A DNA stretch of 38,681 bases from Minisyncoccota bacterium (GTDB lineage Bacteria; Patescibacteriota; Minisyncoccia; Phycocordibacterales; Zambryskibacteraceae), in the NCBI GenBank assembly GCA_036517475.1, contig DATDVZ010000008.1, forward strand, positions 1-38,681. The letters are read 5' to 3'. A program made the position numbers and the translations under genes. Below are positions 3,470 through 24,492 of this stretch, piece by piece (positions within the stretch are counted from its first letter, which is position 1; each line of letters opens with the position of its first letter). A model generated the notes under the pieces. That model made no database searches, was not told the DNA's origin, and saw only the letters and a list, made by a program, of their open reading frames with translations.

Positions 3470-3519
3470 ACTAAACAGAATAAAATGAAATCTAAGCAAG
3501 GTCGAACCTTGCTTAGATT

Positions 3520-4470
3520 TTACTTCGCATGTAAATGCATGTAAATATCTTCTAGGGCGCGGACGGCGTCGCCGGCGGCGATGTTATTTTGATGGTAAAG
3601 GGTGTCAGTTGAATCGCCAGCTGCCCAGATTCCTTTTGTTTGCGTCTGGCTTGTTCTTGGGTCAATTATTATCTGACCGTATTGATTTAAAGGCACCAAA
3701 TCCTTCACATAATTTGTTGAAGGGATAAGACCGATTTCAACAAACACTCCCTCAGCTGGTATTTCCACCGTTCTTTTACTTATTTCATCTTGATAAATAA
3801 CTGAAGTCACAAATTTATTACCTTTTATTTCAATAGGGGTAGCATTTTCATAAGCCTTCATTTTAGGATTTTCCAGAACCTTTTTTATTGTAACTGGATC
3901 AGCGCGGAAAGGGCCGTGTGTAATTAAAGTTACACTTTTGCAATATGCCAGAAGCTGGGCGGCAGTTTCAAAACCTGCATTCCCCCCGCCTATAACAACA
4001 ACATCTTTATCTGCAAATAAGGGACCATCGCAGGATGCGCAGTATGTAATGCCTTTGTTTTCAAATTCTTTTGCTCCCGGAATTTGGAGTTTTCTTCTCT
4101 GACTTCCGGTTGCTATTAGAATGGTCTTAGCTTCATATTCTGATTTATCAGTTTTAATTGTAAAAGTTGCTTGCCCTGAGCCCGTCGAAGAGTTTTTTGT
4201 TACTTTTAGTACTTTTTCTCCTGCATGAATATCAACTAAATCTGCCGCATATGCCCTCAAGTGCTTTTCAAGAATTTCGGCAAATTCTAGACCACTTATT
4301 TTCACCGTTCCTATCCAATTTTCAATCCCCATTGATTCCGTGCTTTGCCCACCCCAGCTTTCAGTGATGAATAGAGTTTTAAGGTGTTTTCTGGCTGCAT
4401 AAACGCCGGCTGCCACACCGGCCGGCCCACCCCCTAAAATAGCAAGATCATACATAGAAGTAAGAATCAT
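3520..4470 (-). CDS. trxB: thioredoxin reductase-like FAD/NADPH disulfide oxidoreductase
   Basis: GGGPAG FAD motif, YCASCDG redox pair, VIGGGNAG NADPH motif, C-terminal WAAGD. Confidence 0.85.
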   Translation of the reverse strand: MILTSMYDLAILGGGPAGVAAGVYAARKHLKTLFITESWGGQSTESMGIENWIGTVKISGLEFAEILEKHLRAYAADLVDIHAGEKVLKVTKNSSTGSGQATFTIKTDKSEYEAKTILIATGSQRRKLQIPGAKEFENKGITYCASCDGPLFADKDVVVIGGGNAGFETAAQLLAYCKSVTLITHGPFRADPVTIKKVLENPKMKAYENATPIEIKGNKFVTSVIYQDEISKRTVEIPAEGVFVEIGLIPSTNYVKDLVPLNQYGQIIIDPRTSQTQTKGIWAAGDSTDTLYHQNNIAAGDAVRALEDIYMHLHAK

Positions 4471-5644: not shown

Positions 5645-5679
5645 AATCAAAAATTCTGCTTGTGGCAGAATTTTTGATT
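5645..5679. terminator. bidirectional terminator-like hairpin downstream of ftsZ
   Basis: AATCAAAAATTCTGC-ttgtg-GCAGAATTTTTGATT, 15 bp stem. Confidence 0.65.
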
Positions 5680-5805: not shown

Positions 5806-6936
5806 TTATTTTAATTTAGAGCGACGTAGAAATGCCGGCACTGCTCCCCAGTCATCATCCTCCTTGTCCTCATCAGTTTTTTTACTCTGAATAGTCGGCT
5901 CTTCTTTCTGGGGTACTGCATTAAAAATTTTACCTCTTTTATCATCATCGGATGACCCGAAAAGCGACTTTTTTACTGTTCCTTCGGGGAAACCGGTTGC
6001 AATAACAGTAACTTTGATTTCTCCTTTCTTCAGCCTTTCATCGCGAACCGTACCGAAGATAATCTTGGCATTTGGATCCACTGATTCGGTGATTATCTTT
6101 GCCGCGTCCTGTATTTCAAACATAGTGAGGTCATCTCCGCCGGCAATTGAGAAGAGCACTCCTTTTGCGCCAGCAATTGAAACCTCAAGAAGAGGTGAGT
6201 TAATGGCAATACGAGCAGCCTCCTCTGCTCTTTTCTCGCCAGAAGCATAACCAATACCCATGAGAGCCGGTCCGGCATTTTCCATTACTGCTCTGATATC
6301 AGCAAAGTCAATATTAATTATTCCCGGAGTCGTAACCAAATCAGAAATTCCTTCAACTGCTTTTCTTAAAATGTCATCACACATTGCAAAAGCTTGCTTT
6401 GCTGTAGTGTCTTTATCTACCGTTGCAAGCAGTCTGTCATTTGGAATTACAATCAAAGCATCAACGCTCTGTTTTAAGTCATCAATTCCTGATTCTGCCA
6501 AGCGCATTCGTAGCATCCCTTCGAAGAAAAACGGCTTAGTGACAACGCCTACTGTCAGCACGCCGGATTCCTTAGCTACTTTTGAGATTGCCGGCGCCGC
6601 ACCCGTGCCCGTACCTCCTCCCATACCGCAGGTTATAAAAGCCATATCAGCACCCTTAACAACTTCTTGAATCTCTTCTTTATTTTCTTCCGCGGCGCGC
6701 TTACCAAGGTCAACATTCATTCCGGTGCCCAGACCTTTTGTAAGATTTTTTCCGATGTGGATTTTTTTCTTGGCATGTGAATGGTGAAGGTCTTGAGCAT
6801 CCGTGTTAACAGCAATAAAATCAACTCCACGAACTTTTGAGTTGATCATATGATTAACAGCATTCTTGCCTGAGCCGCCAACTCCGATAACTTTGATACG
6901 TGCAAAAGCTTCTATATCCGGTTTAACTTGGGGCAT
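5806..6936 (-). CDS. ftsZ: cell division protein FtsZ
   Basis: IKVIGVGGSG, VNTDAQDL, tubulin signature GMGGGTGTG, C-terminal VPAFLRR. Confidence 0.98.
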   Translation of the reverse strand: MPQVKPDIEAFARIKVIGVGGSGKNAVNHMINSKVRGVDFIAVNTDAQDLHHSHAKKKIHIGKNLTKGLGTGMNVDLGKRAAEENKEEIQEVVKGADMAFITCGMGGGTGTGAAPAISKVAKESGVLTVGVVTKPFFFEGMLRMRLAESGIDDLKQSVDALIVIPNDRLLATVDKDTTAKQAFAMCDDILRKAVEGISDLVTTPGIINIDFADIRAVMENAGPALMGIGYASGEKRAEEAARIAINSPLLEVSIAGAKGVLFSIAGGDDLTMFEIQDAAKIITESVDPNAKIIFGTVRDERLKKGEIKVTVIATGFPEGTVKKSLFGSSDDDKRGKIFNAVPQKEEPTIQSKKTDEDKEDDDWGAVPAFLRRSKLK

Positions 6937-18190: not shown

Positions 18191-18215
18191 CACTTGGACA
18201 TCGAATGTCCAAGTG
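18191..18215. repeat. REP-like hairpin left of the RAYT gene
   Basis: CACTTGGACAT-cga-ATGTCCAAGTG. Confidence 0.85.
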
Positions 18216-18230
18216 AGTTATAATAAATAT

Positions 18231-18878
18231 ATGAGAAAGACACCGCTAGTTACTGGGGAATTTTACCATGTATATAACCGGGGAGTAGATAAAAGGAAAA
18301 TATTTAATAATCATTATGATTTAGAAAGATTTCTCCAAAGCATGGAGGAATTTAATTCTGTTGAACCAATTGGAAGTATTTACGAAAATTCTTACGTAAA
18401 AAATAACAAGAAAACTCAACTTGGACATCGAATGTCCAAGTTAGAACTTGTTGAATTTATAACTTATTGCCTGAATCAAAATCACTATCATCTTTTATTG
18501 AGACAAAAAGCGGAAAAAGGTATTGAAAGATTTATGCAGAAGCTTGGAAACGGATATACAAAATTTTTTAACAACAAATATAAAAGATCAGGAGTTCTTT
18601 TTCAAGGAAGTTTCAAATCAATTCACGTTGAGTCTAATGAATATCTTCTGCATTTAAGTGCTTATATTAATCTAAATAACAAGCAAAAAAACAACAAAAC
18701 ATTAAGTAAAAGCAGTTGGGAAGAATACACAGAAGATTATCAAAACCGAGTTTGCAAAACCGAAATTATTCTTGATCAGTTTAAAAATAAAAAAGATTAT
18801 AAATCATTCGCAGAATCATCTTTAGAAGATATAATTGTCAGAAAAAAAATGTTGGATGAATTGGAAGAACTTGAATAA
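18231..18878 (+). mobile_element. IS200-like / REP-associated HUH Y1 tyrosine transposase (RAYT-like)
   Basis: FYHVYNRGVDKRKIF, HUH motif NHYHLLL, LFQGSFKS, YINLN; flanked by inverted REPs. ATG 18231 preferred over GTG 18213. Confidence 0.9.
18418..18442. repeat. REP-like hairpin inside the RAYT coding sequence
   Basis: AACTTGGACAT-cga-ATGTCCAAGTT, read in-frame as QLGHRMSKL. Confidence 0.85.
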
Positions 18879-18889
18879 GCAACTGGTTT

Positions 18890-18912
18890 ACTTGGACATT
18901 CGATGTCCAAGT
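18890..18912. repeat. REP-like hairpin right of the RAYT gene (inverted orientation)
   Basis: ACTTGGACAT-tcg-ATGTCCAAGT; the loop is the reverse complement of the left copy's loop. Confidence 0.85.
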
Positions 18913-18953
18913 GGGGGTCGATAAAATGTGGAATTTTTTTGTATAATTAGATC

Positions 18954-19484
18954 ATGTCATTCTCTAATCCTGAAAAAAATATTGAACAGTTTGCATTAAG
19001 ACTGGGTTCATCAGTTGCAGATTTTGGATCAGGCTCGGGGCATCACAGTTTATCACTTGCGGGCGCTGTCGGAGAAAAAGGGAAAGTTTACGCAGTAGAT
19101 GTTCAGAAGGAATTACTTTCAAAATTAAAGAAAGAGGCAAATAATAAGGGGTTTTTTAATGTCGAAATTGTCTGGGGGGATTTGGAAAAAATTGGTGGCA
19201 CAAAAATTGCCGATTCGTCTGTAGATGCGGTGTTGATTTCAAACCTTTTGTTTCAGGTTGAAAAAAAAGAAAATGTAGCAGAGGAGACCAAAAGAATTTT
19301 AAAAAAGGAAGGCAAGCTCCTGGTGATTGACTGGCAGGAAAGTTTCGGAGGAATTGGTCCTCACCCCGATCAGGTATATGAGAAAAAAAGCGCAAAGGCG
19401 TTATTTGAAAGCAAGAGGTTTATATATGACCGTGAAATTGTAGCTGGGGAGCACCACTACGGATTAATTTTCAGAAAAGCCTGA
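18954..19484 (+). CDS. class I SAM-dependent methyltransferase
   Basis: VADFGSGSG motif I, VYAVD, VDAVLISNLLFQ. Confidence 0.9.
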   Translation: MSFSNPEKNIEQFALRLGSSVADFGSGSGHHSLSLAGAVGEKGKVYAVDVQKELLSKLKKEANNKGFFNVEIVWGDLEKIGGTKIADSSVDAVLISNLLFQVEKKENVAEETKRILKKEGKLLVIDWQESFGGIGPHPDQVYEKKSAKALFESKRFIYDREIVAGEHHYGLIFRKA

Positions 19485-22577: not shown

Positions 22578-22617
22578 ACTTGGACATCCGATGTCCTTGG
22601 ACATCGGATGTCCAAGT
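22578..22617. repeat. REPIN-like inverted doublet of the RAYT-associated REP
   Basis: ACTTGGACATCCGATGTCC-tt-GGACATCGGATGTCCAAGT, 19 bp perfect arms. Confidence 0.85.
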
Positions 22618-23357: not shown

Positions 23358-23423
23358 CCCTGTTAAATAATCAAAAATCCCGATTAAGTCGGGATTTTTG
23401 ATTCTCAGGCAAATTTAACATGG
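23358..23423. repeat. CCCTGTTAAAT-armed element enclosing a terminator-like hairpin
   Basis: Outer arms CCCTGTTAAAT / ATTTAACATGG; inner 15 bp stem at 23369-23403. Confidence 0.6.
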
Positions 23424-24468: not shown

Positions 24469-24492
24469 TTTACTATGATATATCATAGTAAA
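24469..24492. repeat. distal TACTATGATATATCATAGTA palindrome
   Basis: 24 bp perfect palindrome in a convergent intergenic region. Confidence 0.9.

Follow-up and report, generated by a model that had tools for sequence, protein, structure and literature searches.

REP-associated tyrosine transposases (RAYTs) are flanked by cognate repetitive extragenic palindromes (REPs), an association that is well established (PMC2817692, PMC3116915, PMC5581495). The enzyme TnpA_REP of Escherichia coli is reported to cleave and rejoin REPs (PMC6006769 citing Ton-Hoang 2012, PMC3333891; PMC3479197). For one class of these genes, TnpA_REP subclass 2.4 or RAYT group 4 of the Cyanobacteria and Bacteroidetes, Quentin 2018 (PMC6006769) reported that the REPs predominantly interrupt the tnpA_REP gene itself without breaking its frame, in a peripheral region of highly variable length that separates HuH from Y; these REPs are long, with GT[AG]G feet. 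In-frame intragenic REPs are known in several bacteria, and Rickettsia palindromic elements (RPEs) are placed likewise (Di Nocera 2013, PMC3733652). Internal REPs in tnpA_REP genes are hence not new in kind, the precedent being Quentin 2018. In this study, a stretch of 38,681 nucleotides from a Minisyncoccota bacterium (assembly GCA_036517475.1, contig DATDVZ010000008.1, positions 1–38,681; hereafter the window) was analyzed with regard to a RAYT-like gene at 18231–18878, which is bracketed by short REP-like hairpins and carries a further copy of the hairpin, translated in frame, within its own coding sequence. Comparison with homologous loci indicates that the flanking and internal copies at one locus evolve in concert, and the internal copy is probably a cognate REP kept in a tolerated slot.

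The literature searched, in which few subscription journals were covered, yielded no REP/RAYT system for Patescibacteria, no fixed internal slots outside the HuH–Y interval, no family-wide concerted change of internal and flanking copies and no length-neutral replacement of codons in housekeeping genes. The locus bears on two open questions, namely how REPs spread and stay uniform and why RAYT genes persist, and with a 215-amino-acid protein and 23-nt hairpins it offers a compact system for the study of REP homogenization.

Hairpins at the locus

A 23-nt perfect palindrome, ACTTGGACAT-CGA-ATGTCCAAGT, occurs at 18192–18214 and again at 18419–18441, and a third copy at 18890–18912 has the loop TCG, being inverted relative to the first two. 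With the adjoining bases included, the stems of the upstream (U), internal (S1) and downstream (D) hairpins measure 11, 11 and 10 bp, respectively, and their folding as single-stranded DNA (ssDNA) gave −11.2, −10.1 and −9.2 kcal/mol, with z scores from −5.5 to −6.5. The U hairpin (18191–18215; CACTTGGACAT-CGA-ATGTCCAAGTG; an 11-bp perfect stem) begins 5 nt past the gyrA stop codon (18185), and its 23-nt core lies 16 nt 5′ of the ATG of the RAYT-like gene. The S1 hairpin (18418–18442; AACTTGGACAT-CGA-ATGTCCAAGTT) is read in frame as Q63–L71 (QLGHRMSKL), with its loop forming exactly one codon, R67, and sits 14 codons ahead of the H85-Y-H87 motif. An earlier note on this DNA had pointed to a third copy translated as this peptide upstream of the HUH motif, and residues 63–71 (18419–18441) bear this out. 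The D hairpin (18890–18912; ACTTGGACAT-TCG-ATGTCCAAGT) starts 12 nt past the stop of the open reading frame (ORF). The same note had described the flanking hairpins as inverted, as REPs around RAYTs are; this holds in the window (loops CGA versus TCG) and fails as a rule for the family, in which orientation is not conserved.

A chance origin of the hairpins was ruled out by a search with the hairpin pattern, which found no chance matches in 100 dinucleotide-preserving shuffles. Rfam was also searched, and none of its families covers the hairpins. Four independent assemblies contain the 768-nt unit without a single base difference, with gyrA and a methyltransferase gene as neighbours throughout; it is therefore not an assembly artefact. 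The exact protein was found on 18 contigs from several samples, and the listed places all have gyrA, the methyltransferase gene and a solute-binding protein gene as neighbours; given this constant context, the gene does not behave as a mobile element in this population. It is present once in the window. Apparent joints of excision or inversion consisted of 21–38-nt matches from other contigs, many of them at the repeated hairpin, in metagenome assemblies of 2014–2016.

Internal slots across the family

Perfect hairpins were listed around each of 79 homologous genes fetched from different GTDB species, giving 80 loci with the window (individual loci are designated by L numbers). At a typical locus, one locus-specific hairpin recurs at four places: some 40 nt ahead of the ATG (U), near +175 (S1), near +450 (S2) and shortly past the stop codon (D). 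Of the 80 loci, 64 have a U hairpin no more than 110 nt upstream of the start and 57 have a D hairpin; perfect hairpins occupy S1 in 50 loci and S2 in 40. When perfect hairpins in the coding sequence with stems of at least 8 bp were counted by position, they fell at nt 150–250 in 48 loci and at nt 400–550 in 36, and none was found at nt 0–100 or 250–400 in any of the 80. Position-binned counts were used in place of column-wise S1 pair counts from the protein-guided alignment, which were bimodal, the linker being misaligned by a few residues. Neither slot is filled in about 12 of 78 loci, and about 85% have at least one internal copy. In the window gene, S2 (18672–18710, forward strand) is empty; it corresponds to a loop after the Tyr helix that is filled in most homologues and is also empty in L196, a relative with 70% identity. 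Four members of the family taken from databases (P0160, P0201, P0263 and P0267) stop at profile positions 153–156, that is, at S2, and these truncations probably arose where metagenome assemblies broke at the repeated hairpin.

Agreement between the hairpins of one locus was assessed over the seven stem bases adjoining the loop, with at most one mismatch and with the non-coding U hairpin as the reference. Within a locus, S1 agreed with U 36 times out of 44 (82%), compared with 12.8% for S1 hairpins of other loci. The corresponding values were 64% against 10.9% for S2, and 40 of 50 (80%) against 11.3% for D. The 64 U hairpins comprise 43 distinct tops. The alignment with other RAYT-like genes of the candidate phyla radiation (CPR) that the earlier note had proposed thus showed, across the 79 loci, each gene's own locus-specific hairpin at the same internal position or positions and in the flanks.

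The copies also change together between related loci. The loop is CGA in both U and S1 of the window and CCG in both U and S1 of L196. In L024, compared with the 82%-identical L012, one base change that opens the top pair is common to U, S1 and D; the tops of L009 and L014, at the same identity, are entirely different. Mosaics were observed in L014, in which U and S2 share one type and S1 and D a second, and in L031, in which the two types are those of U with S1 and of S2 with D. The orientation of the loop is random among the four positions. As judged from these comparisons, the copies at one locus evolve in concert. Paralogues within one genome are 49–63% identical and have different hairpins, a pattern also described for RAYTs. 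L196, the closest homologue, lies in a different genomic context, which at 70% identity says little about mobility.

In the alignment of homologues, S1 reads Q-L-G-x-x-x-S-K, and most homologues have, directly behind the Tyr helix, a second copy, VHQLGxxxSKLV, that is absent from the window protein. Residues that vary are the products of reverse-complement codon pairs (H/M, S/T, S/A, N/V and H/V) and co-vary between the two sites of one protein. The recurring L-G and S-K are encoded by the conserved stem foot CTTGG/CCAAG; hairpins without this foot fill the same slots and yield unrelated peptides (NSRHRMSTI in L033, CGGPTAT in L032 and GLGPTQS in L079), and three loci, L048, L074 and L077, translate the internal hairpin in a different frame. 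Conservation at the protein level would, according to the earlier note, be indicated by homologues that have other flanking REPs and still encode LGHRMSK; what was found is that only the foot-encoded L-G and S-K recur and that the hairpins differ by locus. The locus-specific hairpins, their match to the U hairpin of the same locus and the three loci with another frame indicate that the conserved item is a DNA (or RNA) palindrome matched to the locus's own flanks, rather than a peptide. The codon-pair signature was also sought in the protein alone among 137 diverse representatives; the background there was 0.81 chance windows per shuffled protein, and these results serve as examples only.

One subfamily lacks S1 and is 8 residues shorter at this point, which is consistent with an origin of S1 as an old 27-nt insertion. 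Distant paralogues (31–39% identity) that are flanked by cognate hairpins have no internal copy in L088 and L172, a copy at S1 in L009b and a copy just after the HUH motif in L024b. The paralogues at L024:641–1291 (minus strand) and L009:6408–7016 lie beside the main gene and have unrelated hairpin types, TGCCAAAGC-aag-GCTTTGGCA and TGTCAAACAC-tcg-GTGTTTGACA, respectively, in both flanks and inside the gene.

The encoded protein

The ORF at 18231–18878 (forward strand) encodes a 215-amino-acid Y1 HUH nuclease of RAYT-like type. It matches Pfam family PF01797 (Y1_Tnp) with 33.1 bits against a cut-off of 23 (E = 7.1e-8). The HUH motif H85-Y86-H87 is encoded by CAC TAT CAT at 18483–18491 (forward strand) and the catalytic tyrosine, Y145 in the motif SAYINLN, by 18663–18665 (forward strand), so that the HuH–Y distance is 60 amino acids. 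Residues H85, H87, Y145, N147, L148 and N149, together with about 40 others, are invariant in an alignment of 43 homologues. At least 4,000 homologues emerged from a word-indexed search; where a source is named, it is almost always Patescibacteria, and several of the homologues are named RayT or transposase. An exhaustive profile search gave 1,027 clusters (50% identity) at E ≤ 1e-30 and 10,651 at E ≤ 1e-10.

The AlphaFold model has a predicted local distance difference test (pLDDT) score of 81.7 and a predicted template modelling (pTM) score of 0.81. In the PDB, the best fold match is the complex of E. coli TnpA_REP with a REP hairpin (4ER8_A; E = 8.6e-5; TM scores of 0.37/0.47), with 10% identity in the structure-based alignment, closely followed by IS608 TnpA, with similar TM scores, and then by ISDra2 TnpA. 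The S1 peptide Q63–L71 is the least confident part of the model (pLDDT of about 62) and forms a linker between the helix 50–60 and the strand 74–81; S2 falls in the loop after the Tyr helix 136–147.

The locus resembles the E. coli TnpA_REP/YafM REPtron (4ER8; Nunvar 2010, PMC2817692; Messing 2012, PMC3479197) in that a Y1 HUH protein with a single tyrosine is encoded by a stable, single-copy gene bracketed by cognate hairpins, in that the hairpins are dispersed singly and as inverted doublets, and in that several paralogues per genome each have their own hairpin type. It differs in its Patescibacteria host, in its short perfect palindromes with an ACTTGG/CCAAGT foot and no GTAG tag, in a copy number of few to tens and in the two fixed in-frame internal copies. 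Subclass 2.4 is the direct precedent for REPs within a transposase-like gene, with the frame unbroken and in a peripheral region judged to be tolerated. However, the slots of the window family lie before the HUH motif and after the tyrosine, at fixed positions and in a fixed frame, and with an ordinary HuH–Y distance, which sets the family apart from subclass 2.4 as described. An in-frame REP between HuH and Y, the trait of that subclass, is absent from the main gene, and a copy just after the HUH motif occurs in the distant paralogue L024b. Furthermore, unlike in subclass 2.4, evolution of the internal copies in concert with the flanks is seen across about 80 species.

Dispersed copies and housekeeping genes

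Hairpins of a locus's own type are also found away from the gene. The flanks examined, 759 kb in total, contain 31 own-type copies, about 18 times the density of the types of other loci. The stem of the window hairpin occurs in more than 116 stretches of Patescibacteria genomes, often on many contigs per genome, singly or as doublets. Within the window, a dispersed copy at 22578–22617, intergenic and 3.7 kb from the gene, is an overlapping inverted REP doublet with the loops CCG and CGG, which folds as a single 18-bp REPIN-like hairpin (−20.9 kcal/mol, z = −9.8). The foot ACTTGG/CCAAGT is conserved among the hairpins of the family. Repeats of the DNA-uptake-sequence kind were considered and rejected, since a density of roughly one copy in 24 kb falls far short of that and the hairpins are linked to the Y1 gene. 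Away from the RAYT-like gene, 57 of 112 copies lie at least 20 amino acids inside ATG-initiated ORFs of at least 150 amino acids; these intragenic copies are read in all three frames, as LGHxMSK, LDIxCPS and TWTSxVQV, with no stop codon in any. This is of consequence for annotation: the repeats probably break metagenome assemblies, and they add such odd peptides to CPR proteins.

The proteins with in-frame hairpins include RecG, LigA, GltX, UvrC, LysS and a Mur ligase, identified by Pfam, and GatB and MnmA, identified by PDB matches. A single fixed site of 24 nt in gatB carries perfect hairpins whose REP type differs among Paceibacteria genomes (L197–L276, for example L206, L216, L221, L228 and L229; also L166, L176, L184 and L153). 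At least 7 of 10 pairs are formed at this site in 17 of 80 orthologues, compared with 0.9% of control windows. There is no difference in length from hairpin-free orthologues and there are no extra residues relative to Thermotoga GatB (3AL0), and hairpin-free orthologues often retain the 3′ half, CTTCCAAGT, read as L-P-S. As there is no change in length, the GatB hairpin appears to replace native codons rather than to be inserted, which suggests rewriting in place. In MnmA, REP doublets at L102:5951–6007 and 6428–6484 (for example, NLDIECPSQNESLGHSMSK, present twice in one MnmA) are read through in frame, and the first adds about 13 residues relative to 9HLV. Other in-frame doublets in essential genes were found in L090 (LigA), L094 (GltX) and L154/L136 (RecG).

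Palindromic elements of Rickettsia were reportedly described by Ogata in 2000 as lying in frame inside genes. RPEs and intragenic REPs share with the Patescibacteria hairpins the presence of short palindromes in frame within functional housekeeping genes (repair, tRNA synthetases). Unlike an RPE insertion, the GatB hairpin is length-neutral, and the same 24 nt hold different REP types. As a separate observation, the ACTTGGACAT hairpin occurs in frame (HLDIxCPSEFE), about 33 amino acids from the C-terminus, in a Cys-rich protein of about 570–640 amino acids (three full-length loci) in six genomes (L126, L195, L101, L145, L128 and L135); this protein, tested on L101, has no Pfam match.

Promoter and start of the gene

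The best promoter-like site of the region (18195–18224, forward strand; 11 of 12 matches) has a −35 box TGGACA at 18195–18200, which lies within the left arm of U, an 18-nt spacer and a −10 box TATAAT at 18219–18224. The left stem ends at 18215, 3 bp before the −10 box, as the earlier note had stated. The ATG at 18231 follows 6 nt past the −10 box and has no Shine–Dalgarno sequence, so that the mRNA is probably leaderless. The GTG at 18213, located within the hairpin, is not the start; translation begins at the ATG at 18231. Across the family, 64 loci have a U hairpin, and in 43 of them it is followed by a −10-like box, mostly beginning 14–18 nt past the loop centre, with the ATG usually 6–12 nt beyond this box; the layout of hairpin, −10-like box and nearby ATG thus recurs in about two thirds of these loci.

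The downstream methyltransferase gene has a promoter-like TCGATA-18-TATAAT at 18918–18956 of the window, with the −10 box ending 6 nt before its ATG, and likewise no Shine–Dalgarno sequence. Given this neighbouring gene, the leaderless layout probably characterizes the organism rather than the RAYT-like gene, and leaderless starts may be common in this genome. None of the RNA runs examined for a transcription start contains the RAYT-like gene.

Origin of the internal hairpin

The explanation considered probable is that the internal hairpin is a copy of the cognate REP which occupies a tolerated slot and is kept there by concerted evolution. Together with the hairpin in each flank and the one read in frame inside it, the gene would form a REPtron-like unit that is stable between gyrA and the methyltransferase gene, in which the palindromes of 23–25 nt would be the cognate REP-like hairpins of a Y1 HUH ssDNA nuclease. 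The internal copy would be a true member of the REP family in one of two ancient slots of the coding sequence, both in predicted loops, and the nine residues that it encodes would be tolerated rather than required. Copies at the locus, together with the few to tens of copies dispersed in the genome, would change together. By analogy with E. coli TnpA_REP, the nuclease may bind the hairpins in ssDNA, cut them and rejoin them, and if it acts mostly beside its own gene the local copies would be kept identical; we infer that homogenization of the copies is due to this cleave-and-rejoin activity. Template switching on the palindromes could keep the arms complementary while flipping the loops. Since U carries the −35 box, occupancy by the protein or extrusion of the hairpin could also damp transcription.

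Several findings weigh against this explanation. Binding and cutting of the hairpins by the protein rest on analogy. The hairpin type tracks protein similarity weakly (57.9% versus 51.2% mean identity), so that a specific co-evolution of enzyme and hairpin top is not demonstrated. The family profile gave no match among PDB sequences, and the protein scored 17 bits against a cut-off of 80 with the NCBIfam equivalog model NF047646 (REP_Tyr_transpos). The identification as a RAYT-like transposase in the earlier note accordingly stands as regards the Y1_Tnp domain, the HUH and Tyr residues and a fold whose best match is TnpA_REP, and falls short of the NCBI RAYT model. In sequence the family is distant from the RAYTs described so far; the protein would work in the manner of a RAYT and is outside the curated RAYT equivalog. 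The hairpins themselves depart from classical REPs in three respects, namely the lack of a tag, low copy number and the many intragenic copies. The GTAG/CGTC tag of classical REPs is absent, GTAG adjoining 3 of 144 copies and the flanks merely extending the palindrome, and the complete 752-kb genome CP011215.1 has six exact copies, three of which are at the gene itself. In addition, about 85% of loci have an internal copy in one or both slots, as perfect hairpins, which is more than simple tolerance predicts, and selection for a function is possible.

A function of this kind is the substance of the alternative that survives best, in which the internal hairpin is a cis-element that couples the level of the enzyme to its activity, either through self-targeting or feedback by nicking or binding in ssDNA or through an mRNA hairpin that limits translation or stability. 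Besides their frequency, the internal copies are nearly as well kept as the flanking ones (perfect stems in 50 loci at S1 and 40 at S2, compared with 64 at U and 57 at D), U overlaps the promoter −35 box in a conserved arrangement with the −10 box and ATG, and internal REPs also predominate in a second, unrelated RAYT subclass, as the relevant sections of PMC6006769 describe it. However, either slot can be lost with the ORF intact, as S2 is in the window gene and L196 and both are in about 12 of 78 loci; some distant paralogues with the same hairpin in their flanks lack an internal one (L088 and L172) or have it elsewhere (L024b); and the loop orientation is random. The same hairpins are also in frame in RecG, LigA, GltX, UvrC, LysS, Mur ligase, MnmA and GatB, where feedback would be senseless, and the rewritten fixed slot in GatB lessens the need for a special self-targeting explanation. 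A cis-element is thus considered unlikely. The earlier note had left the choice between a self-insertion tolerated in a loop and a self-targeting feedback site; the low-pLDDT linker, the slots that can be empty and the hairpins in frame in unrelated genes give better support to the former, and the latter, though possible, is unlikely.

Far less probable is that the unit is an autonomous insertion sequence (IS) of the IS200/IS605 type, with the flanking hairpins as subterminal ends and the internal one as an alternative end. The fold also matches IS608 and ISDra2 TnpA, with which the protein presumably shares its chemistry as well as the recognition of ssDNA hairpins; hairpins lie close to both ends of the gene, and the 70%-identical relative is in a different genomic context. 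Nevertheless, the exact gene is in a constant context on 18 contigs and occurs once in the window, its relatives within a single genome are 49–63% identical with different hairpins, unlike IS copies, and solitary hairpins are dispersed without the gene. The palindromes are perfect, have no asymmetric guide or cleavage flanks and vary in orientation relative to the gene. Unlike in IS200/IS605 elements, there is no sign of movement of the unit, of near-identical copies, of asymmetric ends or of tnpB. That the peptide QLGxxxSKL is a conserved protein motif, with the palindromic DNA as a by-product, is scarcely credible: although L-G and S-K occur in most homologues and one reading frame is common to 58 of the 64 internal cognate hairpins, the data from the loci contradict it. 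The variable residues are reverse-complement codon pairs that agree with each locus's own non-coding flanking hairpins, a different foot puts an unrelated peptide into the slot, the frame is another one in three loci and the linker is of low confidence.

The reading of the internal hairpin as a cognate REP in a tolerated slot may be extended to a more general proposal, which is possible, if doubtful, and according to which Patescibacteria have rewritable REP slots. The nuclease would overwrite existing hairpins in place, more than insert new ones, at fixed sites, including the two sites in its own gene and sites in essential genes, for example gatB. Cuts made and resealed at the conserved foot would bring this about, and the copies in its own coding sequence would act as protected master templates inseparable from the enzyme. 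Across more than 1,000 sequence clusters, the substrate is built into the enzyme gene at two fixed in-frame slots, and the copies at a locus shift together, even in single bases. If the proposal holds, the enzyme and its substrate would stay linked through vertical descent and horizontal transfer, short repeats would evolve in concert without homologous recombination, and the loops of housekeeping proteins would undergo programmed peptide variation.

Other palindromes in the window

A second family of palindromes, unrelated to the REP, has the core TACTATGA-TATA-TCATAGTA with stems of up to 20 bp and occurs at 2382–2425, 2883–2904, 2927–2960 and 24469–24492; it may be an operator or promoter element. 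Two hairpins with 15-bp stems, at 5645–5679 and 23369–23403, have the common outer arms AATCAAAAAT...ATTTTTGATT and different interiors, and are probably terminators built on a common motif. An intergenic 15-bp perfect hairpin at 3488–3520, AAATCTAAGCAAGGT-CGA-ACCTTGCTTAGATTT, has the CGA loop of the REP on a different stem.

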